Of a stretch of DNA of 64,000 bases, positions 20,349-51,484 are shown one piece after another (positions within the stretch are counted from its first letter, which is position 1; each line of letters begins with the position of its first letter). The translations under genes and the position numbers were made by a program. Where the stretch lies: positions 217,249-281,248 of the forward strand of contig JAGORR010000001.1 of NCBI GenBank assembly GCA_018062765.1, in the 5' to 3' direction. The notes below the pieces were generated by a model that was not told the DNA's origin, searched no databases, and saw nothing but the letters and a program-made list of their open reading frames with translations. The DNA comes from Minisyncoccota bacterium. Its GTDB lineage: Bacteria > Patescibacteriota > Minisyncoccia > Phycocordibacterales > Phycocordibacteraceae.

Positions 20349-20620
20349 GGCACCAAGTATAGATGCTCAGTAGGAAGTAGTAAAGTTAACTTTACGTGTA
20401 CGCTAGCGAGACTAGGAGTTTCTCTCACAAAATACTTTCGCCGTCGCAAAGACTAGGATTCTGTCACGGTTTGCGGCTAGATTCGTCCAAGCATTCCGAA
20501 TCTAGCTCGCAACCCCGACCCGGACTCGTCGCTTAACCCTGCCCCGCAGGCGCGACTCCGTCTTTCGAATCCTAGTCTCCCAGACAAGCGAAAGACCGCC
20601 TTTCGGCGGCTTTCGTCTTG

Positions 20621-20691
20621 CTGCGAGACTAGGATTCGAACCTAGATAAACGGATTCAGAGTCCGTTGTCCTACCATTAGACGATCTCGCA
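20621..20691 (-). tRNA. tRNA-Gln (anticodon CUG)
   Basis: Minus-strand sequence TGCGAGA-TC-GTCT-AATGGTA-GGAC-A-ACGGA-CTCTGAA-TCCGT-TTAT-CTAGG-TTCGAAT-CCTAG-TCTCGCA-G. U1-A72 pair is typical of bacterial tRNA-Gln. No encoded CCA. A terminator hairpin lies downstream (20590-20618). Confidence 0.85.
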
Positions 20692-21460: not shown

Positions 21461-22948
21461 ATGGCGGACAGGAAGAACCATACGAGCGCGCAACCAGCGC
21501 GCGAGACCCTCATGCGTTTCGATGAGGTGTCTTTCGATTATGGCCCGAAGCACCCGATACTCGACGCTGTGTCTTTCTCCGTTCGTCGGGGGATGAAGGT
21601 GACGCTGATGGGGCAGAATGGCGCCGGGAAGTCGACCCTGTTCAAATTGATATCGGGCGAGCTCACTCCAGAGAGCGGAAAGCTCATCGTAATGCCAGGG
21701 ACTTCTATAGCGATGGCGCGCCAGGTGGTGCCACTCGAGCTTCGTGATAAGACGGTGCGTGCCTTTTTTGAAGCGAGCTTTACCGAGAAAATCTATGACA
21801 TCGACCCGCGCATCGACGAGGTGTTGGAAGTAGTCAATCTCGTCGCTCCCAAGGACCGCATCATTTCTTCTTTCTCAGGCGGTCAGCAGGCGCGCCTCTT
21901 GCTTGCGAGCGCCCTCATTCAGGACCCAGACCTGCTTCTCCTTGACGAGCCCACGAATAATCTCGATAAGGCGGGCATCGAGCACCTGACGGATTTCCTC
22001 AAGGACTATGATAAGAGCTGCCTCGTTATCTCCCACGACGCGGAGTTCTTGAATTCATTTACGGACGGCGTCCTATATCTTGATATCCATACCCGGAAAG
22101 TCGAGCAGTATATTGGTACGTACTTTGACCTGCTGAAGGAAATCACGGCACGTATCGAGCGCGAGAACCGGAAGAACGCGCAGCTTGCCAAAAAGATTCA
22201 GGAGAACAAGGACAAGGTGAACTTCTTTGCGGCCAAGGGAGGGAAGATGCGCCTGGTCGCGAAGCGCATGCGCGACGAGATAGAGGAGATGGAGGAGGAG
22301 AAGGTGGATGTGCGCCGTGAAGACAAAACGATACGGCCGTTTACGATTCCCATTCCTGAAAGTCTGCTCGGAGTGCTTTTGTCCATGGAGTCATACACGA
22401 CGATGGACCCCAAGAAGCACGTGCCGAAGGTGCATAAGAAGAAGCTCGAGATACGTAAGAACACACACCTTCTGTTACGAGGGCCTAACGGTATCGGAAA
22501 GACGACACTTCTCGAATCCTTGGCCAAGGGTACGAGTGAGGGTGCGAAGATTCTCCCGGGGGTCAAGGTTGGGTATTACCGCCAGGATTTCTCCACGTTG
22601 AATTTTGAGCACACCGTGTACGAGTCCTTGATGTCCGCAATGCAAAAGCAGGACGAGGAGGCGATGCGCGCGACCGCAGCAGGGTTCCTGATAACCGGAG
22701 ACGTTATCGGCAAAAAAATCGGTGTGCTTTCAGAAGGGCAGAAGGGGTTGGTCGCGTTCGCGCGCCTCGTCTTGGAACGTCCCGGCATCCTGTTTCTAGA
22801 TGAGCCCACGAATCACATAAACTTCCGCCATCTGCCGATAATCGCAAAAGCCCTGAGCGACTACCAAGGTGCGATGGTGCTCGTCTCCCACGTGCCGGAA
22901 TTCGTAGAGCAGATCCGTATCGACGAGATACTCGACCTCGGGAAATAG
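21461..22948 (+). CDS. ABC-F family ATPase (tandem ABC domains, no TMD)
   Basis: Two NBDs: GQNGAGKST/LSGGQQ/LLLDEPTNNLD and GPNGIGKTT/LSEGQKG/LFLDEPTNHIN, with an inter-domain linker. Start may be the internal ATG at 21512. Confidence 0.9.
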   Translation: MADRKNHTSAQPARETLMRFDEVSFDYGPKHPILDAVSFSVRRGMKVTLMGQNGAGKSTLFKLISGELTPESGKLIVMPGTSIAMARQVVPLELRDKTVRAFFEASFTEKIYDIDPRIDEVLEVVNLVAPKDRIISSFSGGQQARLLLASALIQDPDLLLLDEPTNNLDKAGIEHLTDFLKDYDKSCLVISHDAEFLNSFTDGVLYLDIHTRKVEQYIGTYFDLLKEITARIERENRKNAQLAKKIQENKDKVNFFAAKGGKMRLVAKRMRDEIEEMEEEKVDVRREDKTIRPFTIPIPESLLGVLLSMESYTTMDPKKHVPKVHKKKLEIRKNTHLLLRGPNGIGKTTLLESLAKGTSEGAKILPGVKVGYYRQDFSTLNFEHTVYESLMSAMQKQDEEAMRATAAGFLITGDVIGKKIGVLSEGQKGLVAFARLVLERPGILFLDEPTNHINFRHLPIIAKALSDYQGAMVLVSHVPEFVEQIRIDEILDLGK

Positions 22949-25185: not shown

Positions 25186-25220
25186 CCAGCGCGAGGTGCA
25201 AACCGGCACCTGACGTGTAA

Positions 25221-25246
25221 AGCCCCGGCCAGTATTGGCCGGGGCT
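25221..25246. terminator. bidirectional rho-independent terminator
   Basis: GCCCCGGCC-agtatt-GGCCGGGGC followed by TTTTGG. Confidence 0.55.
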
Positions 25247-25257
25247 TTTGGTGTGTG

Positions 25258-25641
25258 TCAGAGCGCGAGCTCGCGTTCACCGCGCACTTCGATAACGGGC
25301 TCTGGGGCCGTTTCCGACGCCACAATGTCCGGGAAGACGCCCTTCATCGCGTTTGGAAAATAGCGGAGCGCAGCCGCACGTGGCACCGAGAATTGGAACC
25401 CGCCGCGCCGCAAGTTCTTCGCGAGGTAGAGCTTCGTGTCTCGGACAAAGCATGTACCGCCGAAGAAATTTATACCCTCGCCGTTTACAGCGCGGTACAC
25501 GTTCCGATCTGCCCGGAGTACGTTTGAGACGCGTGGGTAACAGATGGTTCCAATCATCTCGCCGTCGGTTGTGATGGCGATGTGAATCAAAGAGCCGGCC
25601 TGTATCTTCCGGCCGGTTTCGCGGCACATGAGCAAGGCCAT
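25258..25641 (-). CDS. hypothetical protein
   Basis: 127-aa ORF; no confident family assignment. Confidence 0.35.
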   Translation of the reverse strand: MALLMCRETGRKIQAGSLIHIAITTDGEMIGTICYPRVSNVLRADRNVYRAVNGEGINFFGGTCFVRDTKLYLAKNLRRGGFQFSVPRAAALRYFPNAMKGVFPDIVASETAPEPVIEVRGERELAL

Positions 25642-25772
25642 GGCAGTCCTCCATTCGGGTTCAATCTGTTTCTGACTATCTCACTGCCTGAGTCTCGTGC
25701 AAGCGAGACTCGCTTTCTGCATTAAATATGGCATAATGCAGAAAGACACTGAAACAATCTGGGGGATTTGAA

Positions 25773-26270
25773 ATGGGTGATGAAAATGTAATCCGTCCCG
25801 CCTTCGGGAAGGGCGGGTTCAAGCCGAAGGTGGTCGCGAAGGACCCTGAGCCGGTGCGTACGCTCCGGCCGGAATCGAAGTCTGCCGCGAAGACGCCTGA
25901 ACGGGTAATCGATGAGGCGGAGGAATACGAGGAGCCGACCGAAGAGGAGCTGGCTTCTCCCGAATTCCTGCGCGACTTCAAGTTCTGCTTCATGAACATG
26001 GAGATCATGCGTTCGTTCAATGAGCGGGGTACCGAACTGACCGATTTCGTCATCGACGTCCTCGAGTATCCGGGTTTCCGGCAGGAATCGCTCGCGCTCC
26101 GGCGAGGAGTGTTCCGAGAGCACTCTCTGGAGCAGATTTGCGAACTCCTCCTTTGCTCTGGGAAGCCGGAATGGCAAGCGAAGCCTGCCTGGTACGGCGC
26201 CATCTACATCGAGGGGCATATGAGGCAGCGCAAGCTCATCGGCAGCCTGCCGAAGGAGACCTCGGATTAA
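25773..26270 (+). CDS. hypothetical protein (acidic, charged N-terminus)
   Basis: 165 aa; GGGGA RBS; terminator hairpin at about 26296-26325. Confidence 0.4.
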   Translation: MGDENVIRPAFGKGGFKPKVVAKDPEPVRTLRPESKSAAKTPERVIDEAEEYEEPTEEELASPEFLRDFKFCFMNMEIMRSFNERGTELTDFVIDVLEYPGFRQESLALRRGVFREHSLEQICELLLCSGKPEWQAKPAWYGAIYIEGHMRQRKLIGSLPKETSD

Positions 26271-26404
26271 GAGGGGTAGTGTGTGGAAGATAAAGGACCC
26301 TGGGGTTTTGCCCCGGGGTTTTTCGTATGTAGCTGGTCCAGGACGCACCCCTCGACATGGCTACTTAGAGAGGTAGGGGTCGATTTCTAAAAAGAAGTTT
26401 TTGT

Positions 26405-27091
26405 GTGATTATTCAATCAATGGCCCTGGGTAATATAACGAGTCAAGTAATCTCAAAACAACGTGTTTCCGACCATGGTGAGGTACTAACGGCTGAGCGA
26501 GAGGTAAACGCCATGCTCGACATGGTGCGCCATGAGACCGAACGCATTGACTCCCGTTTCCTCGAGCCAGCTTGCGGCACAGGCAATTTCCTAGCTCCAG
26601 TGTACGAAAAAAAGCTTGCCGTCATTAAAAAGCGCTACGGTAAAAGCCAGCTAGAGTTTGAACGCTACGCCGTTACAGGCACAGGCTCCATCTATGGAGT
26701 GGACATTCTTGAGGACAACATAAAACTCTGCCGCAAGCGCCTGTTCGACATCTTTAACGAGCTCTACACGGCGCTCTACAAGAAAAGAAGCAAGGATGCT
26801 GTCCGCAGTGCAGTCCGCTTTGTTCTCAACAGAAACATTTTGTGGGGTGATGCACTTTCTCTTAAAACGGTGTCAAAACAGCCGATGCCCATCGTGTTCT
26901 CCGAGTGGTCTATGGTACGCGGTAGCATGATGAAAAGGCGCGACTTCTCGTTTGAGGAGCTTATGCCCGACAGCGCGGCAAAAGTGAGCCTGTTCAAGCA
27001 AGCAGAAATATCCGATCTTGGGACACCAGCGTTCATACCGACCCCTGTAAAAGAGTACCCACTTACTCATTTCCTTTCACTACACGTATGA
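26405..27091 (+). CDS. Eco57I/gamma-class N6-adenine DNA methyltransferase homolog lacking catalytic motif IV (SAM-binding pseudo-methyltransferase?)
   Basis: Motif X-like HGEVLTAEREV and a canonical motif I FLEPACGTGNFL. The expected (D/N)PP(Y/F) position reads NRNILWGD. 228 aa; may start at the internal ATG at 26420. Confidence 0.55.
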   Translation: MIIQSMALGNITSQVISKQRVSDHGEVLTAEREVNAMLDMVRHETERIDSRFLEPACGTGNFLAPVYEKKLAVIKKRYGKSQLEFERYAVTGTGSIYGVDILEDNIKLCRKRLFDIFNELYTALYKKRSKDAVRSAVRFVLNRNILWGDALSLKTVSKQPMPIVFSEWSMVRGSMMKRRDFSFEELMPDSAAKVSLFKQAEISDLGTPAFIPTPVKEYPLTHFLSLHV

Positions 27092-28578
27092 AAGTTCCGA
27101 CGAGCTACAACCCCGATGTTCTTACGTGTCTTGCCAACCTTAGCAACGACGAGGTGTTCACACCGCCAGCGTTGGTGAACCAAATACTCGACACCTTGCC
27201 GTCCGAAATTTGGCGAGACAAAACTGCCACTTTTCTTGATCCAGTCTCTAAGACAGGTGTTTTTCTGCGCGAAATAGTCCGCCGCCTCAATGATGGTCTG
27301 GTCAAAGAAATCCCCGACGCACAAGCACGGCTCGATCATATTTACACCAAGCAGGTGTTCGGCATCGCCATCACCGAGCTCACGGCACTGCTCTCGCGAC
27401 GCTCGCTTTACTGCTCGAAAGACGCAAGCGGCAAGTATTCAGTAAGTGAGGCGTTCAAAAGTGCTGACGGCAATGTACGCTTCGAGCGCACCGAGCATAG
27501 CTGGAAAGACGGTAAATGTGCCTTCTGTGGTGCAGGCCAGGCCGAGTATGATCGCGCCGAGGCGCTTGAGACCCATGCTTACCAGTTTATTCACACCGAC
27601 AACCCTAGTACACTGTTTAATAATATGAAGTTTGATGTAATTGTCGGCAATCCACCATATCAGTTGAGCGATGCTGGCGATAGCACGGGCGCATCGCCGA
27701 TATATCAACTCTTTGTTGAGCAAGCAAAGAAACTTCAACCACGCTTTTTGACAATGATTATTCCGTCGCGTTGGTTTGCAGGAGGGAAAGGGCTTGAGGG
27801 TTTTCGTGAAGATATGTTGAACGACGGACGAATCTCACATTTGGTGGACCATCCAATCGCGTCAGATGTTTTCCCCGGTATCAAATTGAATGGTGGTGCT
27901 TGCTATTTCCTATGGAATCGCGAATATCAGGGAGAATGCGAAGTAACCATAAAGATGAGCGGCATGGAGGATACAACAAAACGGCGACTCAATCAGTTCG
28001 ATACATTTGTTCGTTTCAACAAGGCAATCTCAATTTTGGATAAGGTGCAGTCGAAAAAGTATTCATCGTTGAGTGAGCTGGTATCACGACAAAAGCCGTT
28101 TGGACTCCGTACTTTTGAGCGTCCAACAGGAAAGGGTACTGTAAAGCTATACGCGAACAAAACCATTGGAAAGATTGAAAAGTCTGCAATAACCGTCGGG
28201 TTCGATATGTTGGATTCGTGGAAAGTATTTATTTCGATGGGCTATGGTGAAGGTGGCGAGGCGCGCGAATATCCGCGCATGATTTTGGGTAAACCCATCG
28301 TTGCTGCCCCGGGAATTGCATGTACAGAGACATATATTGTTGTTGGGAAATATAAGACAGAAAAAGAGGCAGAAAATCTTGCTAAATATTTACAAACGAA
28401 GTTCTTGCGATTCTTGGTCGCTCTTCGTAAAAACACGCAACACGTTACTAGAGATCGGTTTTTATTTGTGCCCGATTTGCCAATGAAAGAAGAATGGACA
28501 GACGAAAAGCTTAACAAGCTTTTCCGTCTGACAAAAGAGGAGATCGAATTCATTGACATGATCGTTCGTCCCATATAG
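27088..28578 (+). CDS. N6-adenine DNA methyltransferase, gamma class (Eco57I family)
   Basis: Motif X DEVFTPPALV, motif I region LDPVSKTGVFL (non-canonical), motif IV VIVGNPPYQ; 496 aa; start overlaps the upstream stop (ATGA). Confidence 0.8.
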   Translation: MKVPTSYNPDVLTCLANLSNDEVFTPPALVNQILDTLPSEIWRDKTATFLDPVSKTGVFLREIVRRLNDGLVKEIPDAQARLDHIYTKQVFGIAITELTALLSRRSLYCSKDASGKYSVSEAFKSADGNVRFERTEHSWKDGKCAFCGAGQAEYDRAEALETHAYQFIHTDNPSTLFNNMKFDVIVGNPPYQLSDAGDSTGASPIYQLFVEQAKKLQPRFLTMIIPSRWFAGGKGLEGFREDMLNDGRISHLVDHPIASDVFPGIKLNGGACYFLWNREYQGECEVTIKMSGMEDTTKRRLNQFDTFVRFNKAISILDKVQSKKYSSLSELVSRQKPFGLRTFERPTGKGTVKLYANKTIGKIEKSAITVGFDMLDSWKVFISMGYGEGGEAREYPRMILGKPIVAAPGIACTETYIVVGKYKTEKEAENLAKYLQTKFLRFLVALRKNTQHVTRDRFLFVPDLPMKEEWTDEKLNKLFRLTKEEIEFIDMIVRPI

Positions 28579-28580
28579 CT

Positions 28581-31094
28581 ATGGCCGATTTTTTTCCGCC
28601 ACGGCCGGAGGCAAAGCCTACTATCTACGCCTACAAGCTCAAAGGTGTGGAAACGCATGCTCATCTCCTCAAGGTGGGCTACACGACGCGCGATGCGCAA
28701 AGCCGCATTGCCGAACAGCTCACCACCGCGCGTTTGCAATACGAAATTGTTTTTGAAGAACCGGCTATGCGTGCCGATGGTTCGACATTTACAGATACCG
28801 ACGTGCATCGCCACTTGCGCGGAAAGCGCATCACGAATCCGGAAGGAGAGTGGTTTGAGTGTGGAGTGAAAGACGTGCGAGCAGCGTACGTTGCCATACG
28901 AGAGGGTGTGTTCAACGAAGAAAACCGCACACAAACATTCGGAATGCGCCCAGAGCAAGCCGATGCTGTGGTAAAAACCGCCGCGTATTTTACCGAGGCG
29001 CATGCTGACGGCAAGCAAACACCGCATTTTTTATGGAATGCCAAAATGCGCTTCGGGAAAACATTCACCACGTACCAGCTCGCCAAAAAGATGGGATGGA
29101 GGAGGGTGTTAGTGCTCACCTTTAAGCCCGCCGTGCACAATTCCTGGCACGAGGATTTGATGAACCATGTAGATTTTGAGGGATGGCAGTTTGTCTCGCG
29201 ACGGGGGAATACGCTCAATCATGCTGACATTGATGAAAAGAAACCATTTGTCGTATTTGGTTCGTTCCAGGATTTTCTCGGAAAAAACAGCGCAGGCGGG
29301 ATAAAAGCAAAGAATGAGTGGGTACACGAGACAACATGGGATGCTGTCGTCTTTGATGAATACCACTATGGTGCGTGGCGCGAGAGCGCGAAGGATTTGT
29401 TTGTCGGTGAGGAAAAAGACGTACGCAAGGACGAAGAGGGTGAGGCGTTGGAGTACTTTGACGAGCGCGCAGTGCCGATAAAGACCGGCGCGTATCTCTA
29501 CCTTTCGGGTACCCCATTTCGGGCTATTGCGAGCGGAGAATTTATCGAAGAGCAGATTTTCAACTGGACGTACAGTGACGAACAGCGGGCAAAAGAAGAG
29601 TGGGACAGTGCGAAGGGACCCAACCCATATGCGTCGTTGCCACGGATGGTGATGCTCACCTATCAGTTACCTGATGCTATACGTGAAGTGGCGATGGGTG
29701 GGGAGTTCAATCAGTTTGATTTGAGCCAGTTTTTTGCTGCAGAAGGAAAGGGCAAGAGCGCGAAATTTTTGTATAAAGACGAAGTGCAAAAGTGGCTGGA
29801 TTTGATTCGCGGTGCGTTTGCTGAAACTACCGTAGACAATTTGAAGCTGGGAGCGAAGAAGCCTGCGTTGCCGTTTTCTGACACGCGGCTTTTGAATGTG
29901 CTATCGCACACGTTTTGGTTTTTGCCGAGTGTAGCGGCCTGTCATGCTATGGCGAATTTGCTCAAGCAACGACAGAACAAGTTTTTTAACGAGTACGAGG
30001 TGATTGTGGCAGCGGGTACGGCGGCGGGAATTGGCGTGGCGGCGCTTGAGCCTGTGCTGAGGAAGATGGGCGAGCCCTTGAAGACGCGCACAATTACGCT
30101 TTCGTGCGGCAAACTGACGACGGGTGTATCCGTGAAGCCATGGACAGGTATTTTTATGCTGCGCAATGTAGCGAGCCCCGAGACATATTTTCAGGCGGCT
30201 TTTCGCGTGCAGACACCGTGGACTGTGCCGAATCCGGAGGGCAACGCGCCAAATCGTGAAGAAATCATCAAGCAGGAATGCTATGTTTTCGATTTTGCTC
30301 CGGATCGCGCTTTGCGACAGATTGCCGAGTATAGTTCTAGACTCAATTTGGATGATTCGGTCAGTCCCGAGAAAAAGGTGGAGGAGTTTATTCACTTCTT
30401 GCCGGTCTTGGCCTATGACGGAAGCGCGATGAATCAGATAGACGCGGCGGGAATTTTGGATATGGCGATGAGCGGGACCACTGCCACGTTGCTTGCGCGG
30501 CGTTGGGAGAGTGCGCTTTTGGTGAATGTCGACAACTATACTCTGGCGCGCTTGATGAACAGTGATGAAGCGATGCAGGCATTGATGAGTATTGAAGGCT
30601 TTCGTGCTCTGAATCAAGATATTGAGACTATCATCAACAAGTCCGGTGTGGTGGAGAAACTGAAAAAAGAAGCGAACGATCGGACGTTGACGAAGAAAGA
30701 AACAGAGTCATTGAGCGACGCCGAAAAAGAATTGAAGGGCAAGCGTAAGCAGGTGCAGGAAAAGCTCATCAAATTTGCAACTCGCATTCCGGTGTTTATG
30801 TATCTCACCGACTACCGCGAGCATACTTTGAAGGACGTAATCAATGAGCTTGAGCCGGACTTGTTTAAACGCGTTACCGGTCTTACTAAAAAGGACTTCG
30901 AGCTCTTGGTGAGCTTAGGTGTATTCAACGATTCGTTGATGAACGACGCGGTTTACAAATTCCGTCGATATGAGGATGCGAGTTTGGCGTACACCGGCAT
31001 AAACAGGCACGAAGGGGAGAATGTTGGTCTTTTTAGCACAGTCCTTTCTGTAAAAGAATACGACCAAACATTCATAAATACTCCAGAAGAGTAG
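28581..31094 (+). CDS. GIY-YIG (T5orf172-like) nuclease domain fused to an SF2 (SNF2/ResIII-like) helicase
   Basis: N-terminus TIYAYKLKGVETHAHLLKVGYTTRD...EGEWFE. Helicase motifs: Q-like TFGMRPEQADAV, I NAKMRFGKTFT, II VVFDEYHYG, III LSGTPF, V LTTGVSV, VI QAAFRVQTP. 837 aa. Confidence 0.6.
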   Translation: MADFFPPRPEAKPTIYAYKLKGVETHAHLLKVGYTTRDAQSRIAEQLTTARLQYEIVFEEPAMRADGSTFTDTDVHRHLRGKRITNPEGEWFECGVKDVRAAYVAIREGVFNEENRTQTFGMRPEQADAVVKTAAYFTEAHADGKQTPHFLWNAKMRFGKTFTTYQLAKKMGWRRVLVLTFKPAVHNSWHEDLMNHVDFEGWQFVSRRGNTLNHADIDEKKPFVVFGSFQDFLGKNSAGGIKAKNEWVHETTWDAVVFDEYHYGAWRESAKDLFVGEEKDVRKDEEGEALEYFDERAVPIKTGAYLYLSGTPFRAIASGEFIEEQIFNWTYSDEQRAKEEWDSAKGPNPYASLPRMVMLTYQLPDAIREVAMGGEFNQFDLSQFFAAEGKGKSAKFLYKDEVQKWLDLIRGAFAETTVDNLKLGAKKPALPFSDTRLLNVLSHTFWFLPSVAACHAMANLLKQRQNKFFNEYEVIVAAGTAAGIGVAALEPVLRKMGEPLKTRTITLSCGKLTTGVSVKPWTGIFMLRNVASPETYFQAAFRVQTPWTVPNPEGNAPNREEIIKQECYVFDFAPDRALRQIAEYSSRLNLDDSVSPEKKVEEFIHFLPVLAYDGSAMNQIDAAGILDMAMSGTTATLLARRWESALLVNVDNYTLARLMNSDEAMQALMSIEGFRALNQDIETIINKSGVVEKLKKEANDRTLTKKETESLSDAEKELKGKRKQVQEKLIKFATRIPVFMYLTDYREHTLKDVINELEPDLFKRVTGLTKKDFELLVSLGVFNDSLMNDAVYKFRRYEDASLAYTGINRHEGENVGLFSTVLSVKEYDQTFINTPEE

Positions 31095-31103
31095 TAAAAA
31101 TCT

Positions 31104-31991
31104 ATGGCACTTTTTCAATCAAAAAACGATAAGGTTACACAGGTCGGTATAGACCTGTCGCAATTTAGAAACGAGGCTGCCCTACGAGATTTTTTTGCTG
31201 GAAATCTTGAGGAACTTTTAGGACTTCGATTTCTTGCGAATGAATACAGAACCACAGATGGGCGTATAGACACCTTGGCAATTGATGAGGTGGGTACTCC
31301 GGTAATAATTGAGTACAAATGGGATGAGAACGATGCTATTCTCCCGCAAGGCTTGTCCTACATGGCTTGGCTAAAAGACAATAAACGTTTATACGATTTG
31401 CTCGTATCAGATAGACTAGGGAAAGATATCAAAGTGTTTTGGGACATTCCGCGTCTCATTCTTGTAGCACAGCGCTTTGATCGTCGCACGCTCGCTGCCG
31501 CCGGAGAAGCGAAAAATAGTGTTGAACTCATTAAATATACACCTTACGACTCGGGCATATTACATCTTGAAACAGTTTACGGTTCTGAAAAAGTAAGAAC
31601 AGTTTCAGAAACAGTAGCTAAATTGTCATCAAAAGGTGTCAAATATTCTCTCGACCATCATTTAAATAGGGTAAACGAGGATGTTAAGCAGATGTTCTAC
31701 GCTCTTCAAGCAGAAATTCTTAAATGGACAAACGTAGACGAGAGGATCGATCAAAAAGTAGGGATAACGTATCGTACGACCAAGAGTTTCGTCCGTTTCG
31801 AGTTCGGTAAGAGCTATGTGAATGTTTTGGTACGAGACCCACGCTACGATCACAAAATTGACCCGAAAGGTCTATTGAAGGATGTGTCCTCGTTCGGCTG
31901 GGGTTATAAGGGGGTTGCTAAATTGAAATCGAAAGAGGATGTACAGGATGTTCTTGAGTTAGTGCGGGCATCGTACGAATCTACCCTATAA
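31104..31991 (+). CDS. PD-(D/E)xK (NucS/DUF91-like) nuclease domain plus a DUF5655-like C-terminal domain protein
   Basis: GRIDTLAIDEVGTPVIIEYKWDE fits a D...(E/D)xK core. C-terminal region resembles DUF5655. 295 aa. Confidence 0.45.
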   Translation: MALFQSKNDKVTQVGIDLSQFRNEAALRDFFAGNLEELLGLRFLANEYRTTDGRIDTLAIDEVGTPVIIEYKWDENDAILPQGLSYMAWLKDNKRLYDLLVSDRLGKDIKVFWDIPRLILVAQRFDRRTLAAAGEAKNSVELIKYTPYDSGILHLETVYGSEKVRTVSETVAKLSSKGVKYSLDHHLNRVNEDVKQMFYALQAEILKWTNVDERIDQKVGITYRTTKSFVRFEFGKSYVNVLVRDPRYDHKIDPKGLLKDVSSFGWGYKGVAKLKSKEDVQDVLELVRASYESTL

Positions 31992-32147
31992 CGAGAGGCA
32001 ATTTATATTGCATGTTGCTAAACCTAGTTCTAAGCAGGTGCTAGTTTCAATCAATAGATAAGCGATATTTTTGGCTATTTACATGACAAATGGCTGTGAG
32101 ACAATTATTGGGAATCGGCGTAAGAAACCGCTCCTCACATCGTCTTC

Positions 32148-33518: not shown

Positions 33519-33540
33519 ATTTTCATATACATAGTTGAAA

Positions 33541-33568
33541 AGGCCCTTCGTAAGAAGGGCCTTTTGTG
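33541..33568. terminator. bidirectional terminator
   Basis: AAAAGGCCCTTC-gtaa-GAAGGGCCTTTT. Confidence 0.5.
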
Positions 33569-33892
33569 TCAGGAGGTTGGTAGCTCGAATTTCTCGCGGA
33601 GCAGGTGGGCGATTCCCGCGATCATCAGGCGCCGCGTCAGTGGCGATGGTATGGGACCATTCGCAAGCCAGTTATCGATGGTTACAGGCGCCGTGCCAAG
33701 CTCTCTGTTGAGTTCCTCGTACGTGACGCCGTACGCGAGCGCGAGTCGGATGGTGGTGAGCCAGGCTTCGCTCTGCGCCTCGGACTCGGTCCACCAGCCG
33801 TCCGCTTGCTCCTCAAGCATCTTCACGAACGCCGGAATTGACGCGCGCACGAAGCTCGTAACCGCCTCGGGCAAATCAGGTACTTTGGACAT
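33569..33892 (-). CDS. hypothetical HTH-containing protein
   Basis: GVTYEELNRELGTAPVTIDNWLANG HTH-like segment; 107 aa. Confidence 0.4.
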   Translation of the reverse strand: MSKVPDLPEAVTSFVRASIPAFVKMLEEQADGWWTESEAQSEAWLTTIRLALAYGVTYEELNRELGTAPVTIDNWLANGPIPSPLTRRLMIAGIAHLLREKFELPTS

Positions 33893-34333
33893 CTAGATTC
33901 TCCGCTTTATGTCTGTCGGCACGCTACCACAGCGCGGCTTGCCGCGCGAGGCAGTGAAGCGTACGCTCGGGGCAGGCAGTACAGGAGGGAATTATGTATG
34001 ACGCGATACTCGTTGCCTCGGTAAACGAGGCACTGCGCGCGGGAATCTTATTTCCCGCGATTGCTATCCCGTTTGGGGCTGGCGACGGAGAACTCTGTTA
34101 CTGCTTTCGGGAATCGGGCGAGATGACGGATGAGGCGGTCGAGGACCTGCTTTCGCGCTCGGTGGTCCATAAGGGCCGGGGTGAGCGAGTCTTTCATCTG
34201 CAGCACATGGCGTCGTCCTCGAATAATCCGCTCCCGTTTGGTCTCACGTTCCTCTACTTCGCGACCTGACGCGGCAGCCCATGGCTGCCGCGTTTTCATT
34301 GCGCGCCACTCCTGACGCGCATAGTATAAGACC

Positions 34334-38949: not shown

Positions 38950-41900
38950 ATGACTCATATTACTTTCGCTTCGCGATCGGCTATCGCCCGATTCGCAAGC
39001 GCGCTCACGGTGTTCGCGCTCGTCGCGACACCGTTCATGACTCTTATTCCTGCATCGGCGCATGCGACCGCGCCGACACCAGCAAGCATTTCGATTGATA
39101 CTGTCGAAGATGATAATGGCTCATATACTTCGCCTTTTGATTTCTCATGCCCTGTAGATGGTAATGAAGGAGAAATAACCATCTACGGTAGCGGAGCGAG
39201 CGCAAGCAACTCCCCGGGGCAGATTGAAGACTATGCCGTTGCAATAGATTGGGGAGATGGGAGCGCAACAACCACAGATCTTGGCACGTTCACTCCTCCT
39301 TCAGGGACGTCTACGTTCACGTACGAATTCACAGCTTCCCATTCGTATTCCTCCTACGGACCAAAAACTGTCACTGCATACCTTTACCATGGAAGCCTAA
39401 ATGGAAACGATGGTGATGCTGTGGCGACAATCACTTTATCTCCTTGCAGCACCGATCCGGGTGTGACCACCGACGCTGCAGACAACATCAGCCACACGGA
39501 CGCTACTATGCACGGTACCAACGGGCCTGTAGCAGCGACAAACTCCTCGTACTGGGTCTCCCTTGCGCCGATTGATACCGGCTCGTCCTCCATTCCGCCA
39601 GGCGTCTACTCAACCCCGACTCAGGGAGCGGTAGCTGCTAATGGCGCCCTTGCCGGGACGCCCCTTTCTTCTGTCGCGACTTCCGGCATCCCAGGAAACA
39701 TCCCAGGCGGTATACAACCAGATACCACGTACTACTTCGTTGCGTGGATCGAAGTCGGCGGAGACTGGTATCCGGGCGAAGTCCTCTCTGTCACGACCCT
39801 CCCTGATCCTGAAGTACCGCCGGCCTGCGGAATCATGGATAACACCACGTTCGACGGATTCTCTCTCGGCAGCGTAAACGGCCAGGGCGGATGGGGTATA
39901 ACCGGTCCCTACGACCACGCTATCGTCGATAACACCTACGGCTTCCCAACTTTCGGTTGTAAGACGCTTCGTATCTCGAACGCCGTAACCGCTGGTTCGT
40001 TCGGTGACCAAATCTTCTCCTACTCAGTCGCCAACGAGGCAGGTGAGACTGTTGCTGAGAATAACGGCATGTCAGGGGGTACTCGCCAGGAGCGCTTCGA
40101 GGCAGAGTTCGATATCGCCTCCGCTGATGCAGACGTTTACCAGCCGGGCCTCGCTGTCACTGTCTCTCCCGACCGGGGTGATGGCGCTCGCATGAGCTAT
40201 CTTCGCTTCGAGGATTCCCCGGACGGTATCGATGTCTATTTCTACGACGTGCAGAGCTCGACTGATCCTGCGAACTTCGTCCAGACCCAGATCGCAAATG
40301 ATCTTCCGCGCACCTCGCCGCACACGGTGAAGCTCGTCATGGATTTCGTTGACGGCCCGGTAAGTCCGGCAGCGCTCCCTGCGAACGATGTCGTCGAAGT
40401 CTTCATCGACGGCGTCTCCGAGCATATCGGGACAAGCTGGGAAAACTATTACCGCTACGATAATGAGTCGAACCCTGGCCTTATCGACACGAGCCGCACC
40501 GTCGACTCGCTCCTCTTCCGTGTCGCTGGCACGGCTGCTCCGGAAACGGATGAGGAGGGCTTCCTCTTCGACAATGTCTCCATAGAGACCGGCCCTACAC
40601 CAGGCCCTGTCGTAGAGACCTCGACCGTGACCCTCTGTAAGTACGCAGACACGTACCCCGAGGAGACTCCACTCCCAGGATGGACGCTCACTCTTACCGG
40701 CGACACCGTACAGGAAAGTTTCGCCGTCCCTGTTGCAGACCCTGTAGGTGTTAACTCAAATCCTCTCGTAGCCGGAGTTTCCTACGTGGCAACGGCGATG
40801 GGTACTTGGCTCAATGACCGGCCAGATGATGCGCCTGAAGGAAACGATGTCGACGCTGAGTACTCGACGATCGACGAGTGGGTAACCCAGATGGACGGCT
40901 ACGACGGATTCGGTACCAATATCCTTGAGCTCGAGATCAATGAGACCGATGGCGAGTGGGGTACATACAACAGCAGCCATACGTACGCACAGGCCTTCAC
41001 CGTTGCTGCTGACGGCCCTGCGAACTTCCGGATCTTCGATGGCGACGGTGCGCATGTTCAGCAGCCAAGCTGGTTTGCCGACAACAAAGACAGCACGCTC
41101 GAAGTAGAGATCTCCGAAGGATATGCCGGCGTAACTGGAGAGAACGGCTGCGTAACGTTCGAAGATGTGCCATTCGGTAGCTACGAAGTAGGCGAGGTCA
41201 TGCAGGACGGCTGGGAGAACGAATCCGGACTTGGCGAGGTAACGGTGGATGAGGAGGAAATGGTCTTCGATGTCGTCAATCATAACGACGACTTCGGCAA
41301 TGATTCCTGCATGCTCGTAAGCGACACAACGACCCTCGAGGGTGGTACTGCTTCCGACCTCGTGCCGGAGCCGCATCATGAATCATGGACCGCCGTAGTA
41401 GACATGCTCGCGATGTGGATCTGGGGAGATGAGGAAGTCACTGATCCGACTGGTGAGGAGACTCAGGTCTTCACGAAGACGTTCTGGCTTGAGTCCGTAC
41501 CAGCGTCTGACGCGACCCTGGTCATCGGAGCCGATAACTCGTACGAAGTCGAACTCAATGGCACTCCAGTGGGTAACGATGCCAACGAGGACAACTACAC
41601 TAACGCTGAAAAGGACACGATTACGATTCCTATGGCGGACTTCGAGCTCGGTGCGAACACGCTCGTCTTCACGGTGAAGAACATCGCGTTTGGCGGCGGC
41701 ACGCAGGAGACGAATCCGGCCGGACTCATCTACAAGCTCACTATCCCAGGAACGGAGTGTCAGCAGACGCCTCCTGACCAGGCGGAGCTACAGGTCCACA
41801 TCTACAAGTACATCCAGGATGAGAACGATGCTATAGCGCTCGCAACCGAGGGAAGCTTCCCAATGAGCGCGACCTGGGACGCTGCCAACATCGGCGCGGG

Positions 41901-43257
41901 CTCCGGCAACTACGCGCTTAACGCGGGGAACAGCTATCACGCTGCAACGAGCCCGATGTCACAGCAGGCCGACTACAGCACCTACGAAGTCACGGATGGA
42001 AATCCTGTCATGCCTGCGGACAGTAATAGCTGTCCGGCGGATAAGTACCGACTCGTAGGCTACAAGACCGGAGATACGCTCATCGAAGCTGAGAACGACG
42101 CAATAGACGACGACTTCCCGGTCTTCGATAGTCTCGACGCTGATAAGTATGTAATCGTAGTCAACGAAGATTGTGATGACCTTGATATCCCACCTACCGA
42201 GCAGGTGAAGGTTCACATCTACAAGTACCTCGAGGATGAAAACGATGTAGCGACGCAGATTCCTGACAATGCGGAGATAGCGCCGTTTGCGATGACGGCG
42301 ACATGGACCGCAGATAACCTAAATAGCGGGACCGAGTCTTCCGGTGAGTATGTCCTCGGTAACAATCACGGCGGAACATCGCTTACGTACGCTGCGGATA
42401 CATCACCGATGGATGTCGGCGCTGATTACACGACTTCGGAGATTACCGGCGAGAACGGTGTCCTTCCGGTTGGTGGTGAGTGCGTTGAGGGTGCGTATCG
42501 CCTCGTGGGCTACAAGTCGGGCACGACCCTTGAAGAGGCAGAAGGCGGCGTCGTAACAGCAGCCGCACCAATCTTCACCGACCTCCAAACTGACCAGCAC
42601 GTTATCGTCGTCAACGAGGACTGCGATGACGTATTCGACGACAGTACTCCATCCGAAGAGCAGTTCACTATCACCTCGACGGTTGAAGGAGATGGAACGG
42701 TGACCCCGTTAGGCGCAATCGTCGTTAATGAGGGTGACAATCAGATGTTCACTTTTACTGACGGTGGCCAGTCGCTCGTCGAAGTTCTGATAGACGGCGT
42801 CGATATCGGAAGTCCTGCTGATTACACCTTCTCCAGTGTTAACGCGAACCATACGGTGCACGCACGATTCGCAACGAATGGAGGTGGCGGTGGTGGAGGA
42901 GGCGGAAACAATAACGGTGGTCAGGTTCTCGGTGCATCCACCGACGACATGTGCATCCCGCTCCTCCATACGTATATGCGCATGGGTATAGTGAACGACG
43001 CACAAGAGGTTATGGACCTTAAGGGCTTCCTTAACGAGGAAATGGGACTGACGCTTCCGATTGACTCGAACTTCGACGCAGCGACGGATGCTGCGGTGCG
43101 TGCATTCCAGACGAAGTACAAGACCGAAGTGCTTGATCCGTGGACACCGTTTGGCTTCAATGATCAGCCGACCGGCTACGTGTTCAAGCTGACCCAGTGG
43201 AAGGTAAACTCAATCCACTGTGCTCCAACGATTTATCCGTTCCCAGCGCTCCCATAA
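38950..43257 (+). CDS. giant (1435 aa) secreted cell-surface protein with tandem ~130-aa domain repeats, poly-Gly linker and C-terminal peptidoglycan-binding domain
   Basis: Signal peptide. Internal duplicated module (VHIYKY[IL][QE]DENDA...YRLVGYK[TS]G.TL.EAE...HVIVVNEDCDD, twice). GGGGGGGGGNNNGG linker. C-terminal PG_binding_1-like domain (AVRAFQTKY). Confidence 0.8.
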   Translation: MTHITFASRSAIARFASALTVFALVATPFMTLIPASAHATAPTPASISIDTVEDDNGSYTSPFDFSCPVDGNEGEITIYGSGASASNSPGQIEDYAVAIDWGDGSATTTDLGTFTPPSGTSTFTYEFTASHSYSSYGPKTVTAYLYHGSLNGNDGDAVATITLSPCSTDPGVTTDAADNISHTDATMHGTNGPVAATNSSYWVSLAPIDTGSSSIPPGVYSTPTQGAVAANGALAGTPLSSVATSGIPGNIPGGIQPDTTYYFVAWIEVGGDWYPGEVLSVTTLPDPEVPPACGIMDNTTFDGFSLGSVNGQGGWGITGPYDHAIVDNTYGFPTFGCKTLRISNAVTAGSFGDQIFSYSVANEAGETVAENNGMSGGTRQERFEAEFDIASADADVYQPGLAVTVSPDRGDGARMSYLRFEDSPDGIDVYFYDVQSSTDPANFVQTQIANDLPRTSPHTVKLVMDFVDGPVSPAALPANDVVEVFIDGVSEHIGTSWENYYRYDNESNPGLIDTSRTVDSLLFRVAGTAAPETDEEGFLFDNVSIETGPTPGPVVETSTVTLCKYADTYPEETPLPGWTLTLTGDTVQESFAVPVADPVGVNSNPLVAGVSYVATAMGTWLNDRPDDAPEGNDVDAEYSTIDEWVTQMDGYDGFGTNILELEINETDGEWGTYNSSHTYAQAFTVAADGPANFRIFDGDGAHVQQPSWFADNKDSTLEVEISEGYAGVTGENGCVTFEDVPFGSYEVGEVMQDGWENESGLGEVTVDEEEMVFDVVNHNDDFGNDSCMLVSDTTTLEGGTASDLVPEPHHESWTAVVDMLAMWIWGDEEVTDPTGEETQVFTKTFWLESVPASDATLVIGADNSYEVELNGTPVGNDANEDNYTNAEKDTITIPMADFELGANTLVFTVKNIAFGGGTQETNPAGLIYKLTIPGTECQQTPPDQAELQVHIYKYIQDENDAIALATEGSFPMSATWDAANIGAGSGNYALNAGNSYHAATSPMSQQADYSTYEVTDGNPVMPADSNSCPADKYRLVGYKTGDTLIEAENDAIDDDFPVFDSLDADKYVIVVNEDCDDLDIPPTEQVKVHIYKYLEDENDVATQIPDNAEIAPFAMTATWTADNLNSGTESSGEYVLGNNHGGTSLTYAADTSPMDVGADYTTSEITGENGVLPVGGECVEGAYRLVGYKSGTTLEEAEGGVVTAAAPIFTDLQTDQHVIVVNEDCDDVFDDSTPSEEQFTITSTVEGDGTVTPLGAIVVNEGDNQMFTFTDGGQSLVEVLIDGVDIGSPADYTFSSVNANHTVHARFATNGGGGGGGGGNNNGGQVLGASTDDMCIPLLHTYMRMGIVNDAQEVMDLKGFLNEEMGLTLPIDSNFDAATDAAVRAFQTKYKTEVLDPWTPFGFNDQPTGYVFKLTQWKVNSIHCAPTIYPFPALP

Positions 43258-47793: not shown

Positions 47794-47831
47794 CCCCATC
47801 CACACCAGGGGAACACTACTTGCGTGCTACG

Positions 47832-49391
47832 ATGATATTCATGAAGATTTCATCGAAAATCTTCGGCGTTCTTGCTACCCGGGTGTTCGCAGGAATATTC
47901 ATCGCAGGCATTGCCGGCGTGCTTTTCTTCGGTAATTTCTTTACCACACGAGGTCCGGTCGAGGCATCCGCCGACACGTACTACCCAACGTTCTGTCTTG
48001 GCGGCTGGGAGAATCCGAAGCTCGCAAGTGAGAAGCCAGCGATAAATCCTAAGGATCTCGGTGCCTTTACGCCAGAGAACTCCGCATTCCTTGCGGATGA
48101 TATTTCCGCACAGATATTTTGCGGATACTTTCCCGTCGTTGGGCGCGACAAACTCCCCATGTCTGCGCGCGTGTCGTTCAACTGGCTGCTTGTTGGCGAG
48201 CCGATTGCGCCTGTTGTTGAGGAAGCTCCGGCAGAGGAGGCTCCGATAGAGAGCGGTGAAGGAGAGGTGCTTGGCGAGGAAACTCAAACTGGTGATACTC
48301 CCGCTGACGTACCGGAGCCCGCACCAGACACCACACCCGCGCCGTCTGATACCACTCCGACTGAGTCGGAGTCACCTGCGCCAGCGTCCGACGCGCCCTC
48401 TGGTGACACAGGCGAAAGTTCTGGTGGAGAATCGTCGAGTGAGTCTGGCGGAGATAGTGGCGGAGGTGATTCTGGTGCCGGAGACTCGGGCGGAGGAGAT
48501 GGAGGAGGCGATTCCGGTGGCGGCGATAGTGGCGGTGATGCTGGCGGCGGGGACTCGGGGGGAGGGGACTCGTCTGCGTCCAGTGTTTTCGATGAGCTTG
48601 CGTCGCTCGTACGCTCGCGCGCGAGCGCCGCGTTTGCGGAAGACGCCCCATCGATTGGTAACGATCTGCTCGATGTGAGCTACAGCTTCGATGGCGTGCG
48701 GTGGCAGTCTGCGGGGCGGGTCGGCAGGGATAACTGGCGCGATTTCAGCATACTCATTCCTGCGACCTCGTGGCAGGAACTTCAGAACCTACAGGTCATG
48801 GTTTCCGCGCTTCCGACCCTCGATACGCGCCCGGCGATTTACCTCGAGTCGATGATGCTGCGTGTCTCGGTGGATCGTACTTTTGCGGAGCTTGCTACCG
48901 ACAGTTTTGCGGCAGTGGGAGATGTCGTCGAAGGACTTTTCACTCTGCCTGCGCCCGTAGCTGCTGTAGTCGAGGCACCCGTCTATCAAGCGCCACCAGC
49001 TAAAGAGAAAAAGCTTTCATTCCGAGTTGCCGGAAGTCCGCTCGATACGCTCGGGAAGAACTTGCCCGCACCAAATGTTTCTGCGAGCGGCGACGGACTT
49101 AGCCTTACCGTTTCCGGGAAGTGCAGTATGCCGTACTTTGTGGTGCTGACCTACCGTAGTCGAGAAGATTTCGAGAAGCGTCCGCGCCAGTTCGCCTCTA
49201 ATTATGCGGGCCCTTGTAAGGGTGGGTCGTTTACGTACGACATGGAGCACCTTCCGACTGATACCCCGGAGGACGTGTACTACCTTGTTGTGGGCGAGCA
49301 GAGCGACACAGAGCCATGGCGGGCAACCACCGAGCTCGTGCCGGTCGAGGTGCGTACGGTAGAGATAACGCCAGGGTCCCTCGACGAGTAG
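47832..49391 (+). CDS. membrane-anchored surface protein with a (G/D/S)-rich low-complexity tract
   Basis: TM anchor. GGDSGGGDSGAGDSGGGDGGGDSGGGDSGGDAGGGDSGGGDS repeat tract. No known domain. Confidence 0.45.
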   Translation: MIFMKISSKIFGVLATRVFAGIFIAGIAGVLFFGNFFTTRGPVEASADTYYPTFCLGGWENPKLASEKPAINPKDLGAFTPENSAFLADDISAQIFCGYFPVVGRDKLPMSARVSFNWLLVGEPIAPVVEEAPAEEAPIESGEGEVLGEETQTGDTPADVPEPAPDTTPAPSDTTPTESESPAPASDAPSGDTGESSGGESSSESGGDSGGGDSGAGDSGGGDGGGDSGGGDSGGDAGGGDSGGGDSSASSVFDELASLVRSRASAAFAEDAPSIGNDLLDVSYSFDGVRWQSAGRVGRDNWRDFSILIPATSWQELQNLQVMVSALPTLDTRPAIYLESMMLRVSVDRTFAELATDSFAAVGDVVEGLFTLPAPVAAVVEAPVYQAPPAKEKKLSFRVAGSPLDTLGKNLPAPNVSASGDGLSLTVSGKCSMPYFVVLTYRSREDFEKRPRQFASNYAGPCKGGSFTYDMEHLPTDTPEDVYYLVVGEQSDTEPWRATTELVPVEVRTVEITPGSLDE

Positions 49392-49392: not shown

Positions 49393-50016
49393 ATGGCAAT
49401 AGTTGCGCGCATACTCGAGAACACGACTGCCGTCGCCGTAGCGGCGCAGCCGCCCTTAAAGACACCGGAGCCGACGGCCGTATTCGCGCTATTTGCTCCT
49501 GAGGAGCAGTCAGGTGCGCGTTTTTTTGACGACACTGCGCTTGGGGTACGCTCCTTCACTCTTCCTGCGTTGGACCTCCGACTTATCTTCGAGCCTACGC
49601 GCGTCAGGCTCGAGGCAACCGCGCCTAAGCCGGTCGATGTGCTTCCGTTGGGTACACGCCTAGCAAATGTCGTCGCGGCCATATATCCCAATGTTCCGTT
49701 TCTTCGCTATGGATTCAACTACGACCGCACGTTCCAATACGACGCCGTCATCCCACAGCGCCACATCATGGAGGCGTTCATGGACGCGGAGGCCGTGAAT
49801 GCGATGACGCATTTTGGCTGGCAGTGCACCTTGCAGAAAGAGAAGGGTAAGCGGAAGGAAACCTACTTCTTCAAGGTCGTCTCGCCGCTTGAGATACGAA
49901 TCCTCGCGAATATCGAGTTCGATCGGGTACTTCCAGAAGCAGGCAAGTGCCAGACAGAGTTCGCGCAGTGCGCGGATGACGCGATGCATATCGTCGAACG
50001 TCTCCGTTTTTCCTAA
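49393..50016 (+). CDS. hypothetical protein
   Basis: 207 aa, translationally coupled to its neighbours. Confidence 0.4.
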   Translation: MAIVARILENTTAVAVAAQPPLKTPEPTAVFALFAPEEQSGARFFDDTALGVRSFTLPALDLRLIFEPTRVRLEATAPKPVDVLPLGTRLANVVAAIYPNVPFLRYGFNYDRTFQYDAVIPQRHIMEAFMDAEAVNAMTHFGWQCTLQKEKGKRKETYFFKVVSPLEIRILANIEFDRVLPEAGKCQTEFAQCADDAMHIVERLRFS

Positions 50017-50017
50017 C

Positions 50018-51484
50018 ATGACCGTAACCCGCAACGGCGTACGACTTACGAGGCGGAGCAAGCGCTGGTGGCGGCTTGCGTTCATACTTGCTGCCGAGGG
50101 TGTGCTTTCCGCGTTCGTCTACATGTCCTTGGCGGCGCATATCCTCTGGCCAGAAGACTCTAAAGCTGCCACCGGCGTCTCCGCGATGCTCTCCTATGAG
50201 GGAAGGCTTATGGACGCGTCGGGGAACCCGCTTGGCGGCACCGGCACCCCATACTGCTTCCGCTACTCCATATACGACGCAGCCTCGGGTGGCACGAAGC
50301 TCTGGCCCGCAGGCACCCCTAATACATCGCTCGCCACTTCTACCGACGGCGTGTTCTCGTCCCTCATTGGCCAGGCGGATGCGCTTACCTATAACTTTTT
50401 TGATAGCGATACTGTCTACCTCAACGTCGATGTGTACACGGTGGCAGCGTCTGGAGGCACCTGCTCGGGCGGTTCGTGGGAGAGTCTCACGCCCCGTCAG
50501 CAGATTGCCTCAACCGGCTACGCGCAGACCGCAAAAAACACCTACGGCGGCTCGATACAGGTGGGTGACGGCGCCGGCGTAACGCTCAATTATCTTGCGC
50601 TCGACGTGAAGAATACGGACGACTACATCGGTCAGTCCTGCACCACAAGCGGCACCGTGTGGTACAACTCCGCGATATCAAAGACACTCGTCTGCGAGAA
50701 CTCGGTCATACAGGCGATTTCGAATGCGTCTGCGACGACGACGATTGCGGGCATCACAACGAACACTGCCGCTGCAGCATCTACCGGTACCATCGTTTTC
50801 AGTAACGCAAACGGCGTTACCTTCGGCATCAACGGACAGACCATCACTGCTTCTGTTGCCGCCGCTGGCGGCGGCATCACCTACAGCGGATATGCACCTG
50901 ATCATTTGGGTAAGGAGCTCGTCGCGGGTCAACAGGGACAAGGGACCTTCTTTGTTCAGCCGATGTGGAACGCTCCCTCGTTCCAGTTCGATAGACTCGT
51001 TTTGCCCATCAACTTCTCCAACACCTCAAACCTTTCGGGAAGCGGCACCGTCTCGTTCTGGATTGGCATTTACAGCAGAAACGTATCGTCGCTTTCGCTC
51101 GTGATGAGCACTTCCATATCAACGAACGTCACGATGTCTGGGACGGTCGGTAGCTATTCGCTCTACGCTGGACCGAGAAACCTTGCTATTCCATGGACGA
51201 GCACCGTATCCGGAAGCGACTACTGGATTGGCATCGGCTCTCGTACGACCACGGGCGGCGCCGCGATGTCGATCTCACAATTCCTGGCTTCACAACCGAA
51301 CTCAAACTATTCGGGAAATTTCGGTTCAGCGAACAATGCCACCAAAGGAATGATTATGGGACAAGGTTTCTATAGTGCTACGACATCAGCAGTCCCGGCT
51401 TCGATCGCCTTCACGCAAATCAATGGAACGGGTTCGCTCAATAGGCGCCCCCCAGTGTATTACTTCATGAGCGGTACGATATGA
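50018..51484 (+). CDS. membrane-anchored Ser/Thr/Gly-rich surface protein, hypothetical
   Basis: Internal ATG one nt after the upstream stop. N-terminal TM. Long S/T/G/N-rich beta-rich region. Confidence 0.45.
   Translation: MTVTRNGVRLTRRSKRWWRLAFILAAEGVLSAFVYMSLAAHILWPEDSKAATGVSAMLSYEGRLMDASGNPLGGTGTPYCFRYSIYDAASGGTKLWPAGTPNTSLATSTDGVFSSLIGQADALTYNFFDSDTVYLNVDVYTVAASGGTCSGGSWESLTPRQQIASTGYAQTAKNTYGGSIQVGDGAGVTLNYLALDVKNTDDYIGQSCTTSGTVWYNSAISKTLVCENSVIQAISNASATTTIAGITTNTAAAASTGTIVFSNANGVTFGINGQTITASVAAAGGGITYSGYAPDHLGKELVAGQQGQGTFFVQPMWNAPSFQFDRLVLPINFSNTSNLSGSGTVSFWIGIYSRNVSSLSLVMSTSISTNVTMSGTVGSYSLYAGPRNLAIPWTSTVSGSDYWIGIGSRTTTGGAAMSISQFLASQPNSNYSGNFGSANNATKGMIMGQGFYSATTSAVPASIAFTQINGTGSLNRRPPVYYFMSGTI

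Follow-up and report, generated by a model that had tools for sequence, protein, structure and literature searches.

The window analysed here, 64,000 nucleotides (nt) of a Minisyncoccota bacterium genome (GenBank assembly GCA_018062765.1, contig JAGORR010000001.1, positions 217,249 to 281,248 of the forward strand), contains an open reading frame (ORF), here called R, that an original prediction had described as a GIY-YIG domain of the T5orf172 type fused to a superfamily 2 (SF2) translocase, and possibly a helicase-driven restriction endonuclease. The coordinates and strand then given for this ORF are exact. R is the third and last gene of a tight operon, M1-M2-R, which spans window positions 26405..31094 (Table 1).

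Table 1. Genes of the M1-M2-R operon and regions of the R protein, in window coordinates (aa, amino acids)
Feature	Position	Strand	Description
M1	26405..27091	+	228 aa from GTG 26405; small methylase-like subunit; alternative ATG start at 26420
M2	27088..28578	+	496 aa; Eco57I-family N6-adenine methylase subunit; 4-nt overlap with M1
R	28581..31094	+	837 aa, ATG start, no internal stop; restriction subunit; begins 2 nt past the M2 stop
R, T5orf172/GIY-YIG nuclease domain	28626..28889	+	residues 16-103; Pfam T5orf172 and MUG113
R, SF2 translocase core	28941..30350	+	residues ~121-590
R, C-terminal region	30351..31091	+	residues ~591-837; conserved, mostly helical; no family assignment

Relation of the operon to DrdVI

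A tblastn search of plasmids located the same protein on pDrdVI, a 15.5-kb plasmid (CP031164) of Deinococcus wulumuqiensis NEB 479, where an 851-aa R follows genes for a 'DNA methyltransferase' (212 aa) and an Eco57I-domain methylase (539 aa). The R proteins are 57% identical over 848 aligned columns, and over their full lengths M2 is 48% identical to M2.DrdVI (E 1e-179) and M1 40% identical to M1.DrdVI (E 4e-51). Judged by these alignments, M1, M2 and R are full-length orthologues of M1.DrdVI, M2.DrdVI and DrdVI. Gene content, order and orientation agree between the two systems, as do the union of a T5orf172 domain with a translocase in R and the complementary motifs in M1 and M2. They differ in location: DrdVI is carried on a Deinococcus plasmid, whereas the operon described here lies on the chromosome of a metagenome-assembled genome (MAG) of Candidatus Pacebacteria, under which name the exact R protein is present in public databases.

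M1-2.DrdVI, which is typed IIG, was shown by cloning in E. coli to place N6-methyladenine (m6A) in GCAGCC (PMC6430315). Authors from New England Biolabs (NEB) described DrdVI as 'a fused translocase and REase' (restriction endonuclease) with 'a GIY-YIG endonuclease domain', and M1.DrdVI and M2.DrdVI as its methylase parts (PMC4996451). MaeIV of Methanococcus aeolicus (GCACY), a further member of the family with a name, is a 'split methylase/RM' (restriction-modification) that resembles DrdVI (PMC10113651). The m6A sites of both systems were established by cloning and by SMRT (single-molecule real-time) sequencing (PMC6430315, PMC10113651). On a broader scale, Morgan et al. (2009) predicted that nuclease-less MmeI-like methylases pair with an adjacent helicase, YeeB, and a GIY-YIG protein, YeeC (PMC2731913), and in the account of Blow et al. 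(2016) endonuclease, methylase and translocase modules are permuted to give 'Type IIG-like' systems (PMC4752239). The view that a nuclease at the N-terminus is an unusual arrangement, which was part of the original prediction, does not survive this record: the arrangement is already catalogued, with DrdVI in REBASE by 2016, the unfused version predicted in 2009 and copies in the thousands, and the present operon adds one member.

The family is indeed very large. A word-indexed protein search with R gave at least 8000 matches, the best 120 of which are 830-848 aa long and 72-75% identical, except for the exact Pacebacteria match. An exhaustive search of 50%-identity representatives returned 4152 clusters at E<=1e-3, of which 1101 reached E<=1e-30. 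Eighty loci from named genomes cover more than 20 phyla and include Bacteroidota, Bacillota, Actinomycetota, several proteobacterial classes, Planctomycetota, Verrucomicrobiota, Chloroflexota, Cyanobacteria and Patescibacteria. Gene order is well retained. Over 2.6 kb of upstream sequence was available for 60 related loci; of these, 59 have M2 upstream of R and 56 have both M1 and M2, with order and strand kept. On the other side of R no gene is conserved among 84 related loci, and the extra genes that separate M2 from R in 13 loci are mostly unrelated singletons, which indicates that the core of the system consists of three genes.

A contig of 3.4 kb assigned by binning to Candidatus Heimdallarchaeota carries a copy of R with 68% identity (locus L014, JAMOVR010000074.1); transfer into archaea or a binning error could account for it. 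The MaeIV system of Methanococcus shows that the DrdVI family does occur in archaea.

Single-chain T5orf172-ResIII-Eco57I proteins of 1319-1464 aa, with an M1 homologue directly upstream, are frequent on plasmids of Enterococcus, Lactococcus and other Lactobacillales. An example is the 1456-aa 'Eco57I restriction-modification methylase domain-containing protein' of Enterococcus faecium pDY28-optrA. Such proteins have T5orf172, helicase and M2-type parts homologous to those described here, at identities of only about 25-32%, but join nuclease, helicase and methylase in one polypeptide, whereas here M2 is a separate gene before R. M2 is homologous to their C-terminal ~500 aa, and M1 shares 31% identity (E 8e-31) with the small 'N-6 DNA methylase' that lies upstream of the Enterococcus fusion. 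The fusion of nuclease, helicase and methylase argues that the parts act together. A fused architecture is also captured by the PADLOC model REase_MTase_IIG (PDLC03626, 'Type IIG restriction enzyme-methyltransferase', 1359 positions), which matches R with E 7e-32; R aligns to model positions 152-827 and M2 to positions 1006-1316.

Features of the R protein and the methylase pair

Conservation in R was assessed with an alignment of 53 sequences reaching down to 30% identity, and residue counts were taken over 77 homologues from genome assemblies of more than 20 phyla. The 53-sequence alignment also served to build an AlphaFold2 model, whose mean predicted local distance difference test score (pLDDT) is 82.8 and whose predicted template modelling score (pTM) is 0.73; an earlier run on 18 sequences of ~74% identity was poor outside the N-terminal domain (pLDDT 50) and was not used. 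Sequence searches of the PDB gave no significant matches for R (phmmer), M1 or M2.

The N-terminal domain belongs to the family to which it had been assigned. Pfam places T5orf172 (PF10544) at residues 16-103 (34.8 bits, cut-off 20; E 2.4e-8) and MUG113 (PF13455) at residues 30-102 (E 1.3e-6, 29.3 bits against a cut-off of 22.3), with no match to a PD-(D/E)xK family. All of 25 diverse N-terminal domains tried (25/25) match T5orf172, the best with E 7e-15. When a large protein database was searched with a profile of the N-terminal domain, the matches were all short fragments of this same family. The T5orf172 family is part of the GIY-YIG superfamily, and Odn, a T5orf172 protein, is a proven nuclease (PMC8263062). 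Comparison with the sequence of I-TevI, which was validated against PDB 1MK0, makes Tyr16 the counterpart of the tyrosine in 'GIY' and puts K31-V-G33 at the 'YIG' position. Arg42 lies 9 residues past the glycine, against 8 in I-TevI, and the distance of 48 residues between R42 and E90 equals that between R27 and E75 of I-TevI. R42 and E90 are present in 77/77 homologues and Y16 in 76/77, and all three are also invariant in the alignment of diverse N-terminal domains. K31, G33 and D72 are invariant as well, and T35 and W91 are unchanged in 76-77 of the 77. We propose Y16, K31-V-G33, R42, H76 and E90 (in EWF) as the active-site residues of R. In the model the domain has pLDDT values of 86-93 and the element order b-b-a-b-a-(b)-a.

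The translocase assignment was also borne out. ResIII (PF04851) matches R at residues 121-271 (E 5e-6, above the gathering score), and the helicase motifs are found where they had been described: Q126; motif I or Walker A at G159-K160-T161 (nt 29055-29063); motif II, DEYH, at D259-E260-Y261-H262 (nt 29355-29366); motif III at S309-G310-T311 in LSGTPF; and motif VI at Q538/R542/Q544. All ATPase motifs are invariant in the 53-sequence alignment and unchanged in 76-77 of the 77 homologues. Structurally the R model comes closest to Snf2 remodellers and to the double-stranded DNA (dsDNA) translocases found in restriction enzymes. The motor resembles those of HsdR, LlaBIII, EcoP15I Res and the Snf2 translocases, and Foldseek agrees, with ZorD among its matches. 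The C-terminal region is strongly conserved in the family and helical in the model (pLDDT ~67-88), and the fused PDLC03626 model covers much of it, reaching residue 784. By analogy with the coupler domain of Type ISP enzymes, this region may dock onto M1 and M2.

The two methylase subunits carry complementary parts of a methylase. M2 has an Eco57I domain (PF07669, residues 88-262, E 5e-38) with the catalytic N188-P-P-Y191 (nt 27649-27660) within GNPPY 187-191, but its motif I is a variant, D51-P-V-S-K55-T-G-V-F59, which follows the family pattern DPxxK(S/T)GVF with an invariant lysine. In M1 the situation is reversed. Its motif I is canonical and of the type that binds S-adenosylmethionine (SAM), E54-PACGTGN-F62 (nt 26564-26590; family EPACGxGNF), and motifs II and III are present, but 'FSEW' (165-168) stands at the NPPY position, so that catalytic motif IV is missing. 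The matches of M1 to PADLOC MTase_II (PDLC03313, E 2.5e-9) and to a PHROG DNA methyltransferase (E 1e-10) cover just the SAM-binding portion at the N-terminus of DNA methylases. Over their first ~60 residues M1 and M2 are homologous to each other (hhalign probability 97.6%, E 4.7e-12; M2 part 27088..27330), which means that M2 is not merely the C-terminal half of a cut gene. Seen from its sequence, M1 is a paralogous half-methylase that provides the sole standard SAM loop, and the label 'split methylase' may understate its role. On the basis of these motifs and of their relatives, M1 and M2 together would be an m6A methylase of a short asymmetric site. The stretch of M2 from ~281 to 400 is poorly conserved across the family and is probably the target-recognition region that reads the DNA sequence; in view of this divergence, the recognition sequence here is probably different from that of DrdVI.

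Between motif III and NPPY, M2 also has an invariant cluster of C109, H137, C144 and C147 (nt ~27412-27528), which is probably a zinc knuckle. The fused Enterococcus form, when aligned to M2, matches none of these residues (0/4).

Possible mechanism and alternative explanations

Several known systems are built on similar principles. In the Type ISP enzymes LlaGI and LlaBIII, a Mrr/PD-(D/E)xK nuclease holds the same N-terminal position as T5orf172 in R. The original prediction had placed the Type ISP nuclease at the C-terminus, but it is N-terminal to the ATPase (PMC7049714). Since this is true of HsdR too, the domain order of R is the standard one, with the fold of the nuclease as the sole difference. 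The Type ISP enzymes combine nuclease, ATPase, methylase and target-recognition domain in one chain without an M1-like partner, whereas three ORFs are found here, and a phmmer search of the PDB detected no sequence similarity of R to LlaGI or LlaBIII. Membership of Type ISP was rejected on these grounds, namely the three ORFs, the other nuclease family and the lack of sequence homology. Type I HsdR and Type III Res have PD-(D/E)xK nucleases as well, located N-terminal to the motor in HsdR, as in R, and at the C-terminus in Res, and Type I systems need a separate HsdS specificity subunit and bipartite sites. The YeeA(DnmA)-YeeB-YeeC or OspHL35III-type systems likewise bring together a methylase and recognition protein, an SF2 helicase and a T5orf172/GIY-YIG protein (PMC2731913, PMC4752239, PMC9973331). 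The likeness is one of architecture: their helicase and GIY-YIG protein are separate, and they have a large MmeI-like methylase and no M1/M2 pair. With helicase and GIY-YIG domain in one chain and a methylase pair of 228 + 496 aa, the operon does not belong to this type. BREX, DISARM, Hma and MADS were considered and rejected. The PADLOC matches to PglX (E 6.6e-4) and, for M1, mad2 (E 2.4e-7) are marginal; R itself matches REase_MTase_IIG alone in PADLOC. The score for NCBIfam MAD2 is 19.5 against a cut-off of 720.

In view of the above, we consider R the restriction subunit of a DrdVI-family, ATP-driven enzyme that would cut unmethylated DNA in a manner similar to Type ISP enzymes, but with three chains and with a GIY-YIG domain replacing the Mrr/PD-(D/E)xK nuclease. 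The probability that this holds, jointly with the operon being intact and acquired horizontally into a bacterial chromosome, is put at about three in four. In this mechanism M1 and M2 together would mark a short asymmetric site on one strand with m6A. At an unmethylated site R could bind the M1/M2 complex through its C-terminal helical region, after which the HsdR/Snf2-like motor would pull double-stranded DNA at the expense of ATP and the N-terminal GIY-YIG (T5orf172) domain would nick the DNA. GCAGCC has its methylatable adenine on one strand only, so that a single strand per site can be modified, which poses the same problem of distinguishing self from non-self as in Types III and ISP. Type III and ISP enzymes require two converging enzymes (PMC7049714). 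With a single GIY-YIG active site and one-strand methylation, a double-strand break would most likely need two enzymes here too, approaching each other from two unmodified sites. Both this collision requirement and the contacts between subunits are inferred. The earlier suggestion of a helicase-driven, methylation-sensitive restriction endonuclease gains support from the methylase operon, the orthology to DrdVI and the invariant Tyr, Arg and Glu. It is doubtful, and here offered only tentatively, that the DrdVI type forms a mechanistically distinct ATP-dependent class, with a monomeric GIY-YIG nickase on an HsdR/Snf2-like motor, cutting only by collision, and with M1 as a SAM-dependent switch between methylation and restriction.

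A number of observations weigh against cleavage by R, and they concern both the nuclease domain and the record of the family. The Arg and Glu expected of a GIY-YIG active site are conserved as the original prediction required, but the Asn is absent: the alignment of N-terminal domains has no conserved Asn after E90. An invariant Lys, as also found there in Hpy188I, replaces the second Tyr at the YIG position, and position 76 is His in 55/77 homologues and Arg in 22/77. No signal came from an hhalign comparison of the N-terminal domain with one I-TevI sequence, no GIY-YIG entry was among the PDB sequences matched in a profile search, and structure searches with the R model were dominated by the helicase and matched no solved GIY-YIG structure. 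The proposed link to canonical GIY-YIG enzymes depends on Pfam membership, conserved residues and the order of secondary-structure elements in the model. Moreover, methylase activity alone is the demonstrated activity in the DrdVI family, and the literature, in which just three papers were found to name DrdVI, yielded no report of DNA cleavage or phage restriction by it or by close relatives. The DrdVI-like copies of Bibersteinia are frameshifted, decayed and silent (PMC4996451), and dnmA-yeeB-yeeC of B. subtilis was seen to restrict neither phage nor DNA uptake (PMC9973331).

These family data would be explained if the methylase were functional and the restriction arm inactive or repurposed, leaving an orphan m6A methylase next to a relic or repair-type helicase-nuclease, the conclusion reached for DnmA-YeeB-YeeC in B. 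subtilis. We regard this as unlikely, since all three ORFs are intact here and none of the nuclease and ATPase motif residues is missing. Relics do not show such strict residue conservation over more than 20 phyla, nor horizontal spread and carriage on plasmids, and the unfused analogue yeeAB mediated resistance to one group of phages in Vibrio crassostreae (Piel preprint, bioRxiv 10.1101/2021.05.05.442762). The deviations in the active site, in turn, could mean that T5orf172 is a DNA-binding or regulatory module, and that the system blocks invaders without cutting, as BREX does, or recruits a nuclease such as the DUF5655 protein encoded next to R. One T5orf172 family was earlier proposed, on contextual links, to serve recombination and not restriction, the canonical Asn and the second Tyr are missing, and the gene that starts 9 nt past R has a PD-(D/E)xK-like motif. 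Against this, the invariant residues are exactly the GIY-YIG Tyr, Arg and Glu, with spacing like that of I-TevI, Odn is a nuclease of the same family, and the Asn motif is not universal across the superfamily, being absent in some families (PMC1564403). Among 84 related loci none has a DUF5655 gene beside R, nor is any other gene conserved downstream. A non-nuclease role of T5orf172 is therefore judged very unlikely.

Methylases and helicases also occur together in factors that protect the DNA of mobile elements, phage P1 DarB being an analogue, and one may ask whether M1-M2-R shields incoming DNA as an anti-restriction factor. Relatives are common on plasmids, 23 of which are predicted to be conjugative and 22 mobilizable. 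The operon, however, lies in a chromosomal window among housekeeping genes, with no phage or plasmid genes, and an invariant nuclease active site would have no role in protection. PADLOC and the curators of REBASE class the family with restriction enzymes, and we consider a protective function highly improbable.

Genomic setting and significance

The G+C fraction (GC) is 0.47-0.53 across the operon and about 0.54-0.59 in its flanks. This drop, together with the presence of family members on plasmids, fits mobile defence genes. The location is chromosomal, with no phage or plasmid genes among the neighbours in the window. A phage or prophage origin was rejected: megablast of 26000-34000 against 50,697 phage records gave nothing, and the neighbouring genes are of the housekeeping type. 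The other large ORFs in the window include those for GlmS, a Cu-ATPase, CTP synthase, MsrAB, an ABC-F protein and an M23 peptidase. Promoter and terminator scans gave scores no better than those of shuffled sequence. The ~1.2 kb upstream of M1 (25200..26400) contains overlapping low-complexity ORFs in several frames without family matches, and could either be non-coding DNA or mark a junction of the acquired island.

A gene for a 295-aa protein (31104..31991, +) starts 9 nt past the R stop. It has DUF5655 at the C-terminus and an N-terminal PD-(D/E)xK-like motif, D55...E69-Y-K71, with weak NucS_C matches, and it matches the PADLOC candidate defence family PDC-S18 (E 1.7e-61). Its GC of 0.42 is the minimum of the region. 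A role as fourth component of the system was rejected in view of its absence beside R in all 84 related loci, where the downstream genes are mutually unrelated; the protein is probably a separate defence nuclease that shares the island. In two of the loci (L003 and L004) a Mrr-type gene stands directly after R instead.

Further away, a tRNA-Gln(CTG) at 20620..20691 (-), ~6 kb upstream of the operon, and an ABC-F ATPase at 21461..22948 (+) with two ABC_tran domains (E 7e-48) do not adjoin the island. A 1435-aa ORF at 38950..43257 (+) has no Pfam match at E<=1e-5, and neither do the ORFs at 47820..49391, 49814..51484 and 54703..56070; a cohesin/Big_13 protein is encoded at 59647..61521. All of these ORFs may encode large surface proteins of the host, a member of the candidate phyla radiation (CPR).

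For the window itself the outcome is an annotation and not a discovery: one intact copy of a very widespread RM family is added, in a CPR (Pacebacteria) genome. The DrdVI family is nevertheless little studied. Its architecture shows that translocating restriction enzymes have an interchangeable nuclease module, with GIY-YIG here, PD-(D/E)xK in Types I, ISP and III, and phospholipase D (PLD) in others. The family is common on plasmids of Enterococcus and Lactococcus, with possible effects there on the transfer of genes and on resistance to phage.

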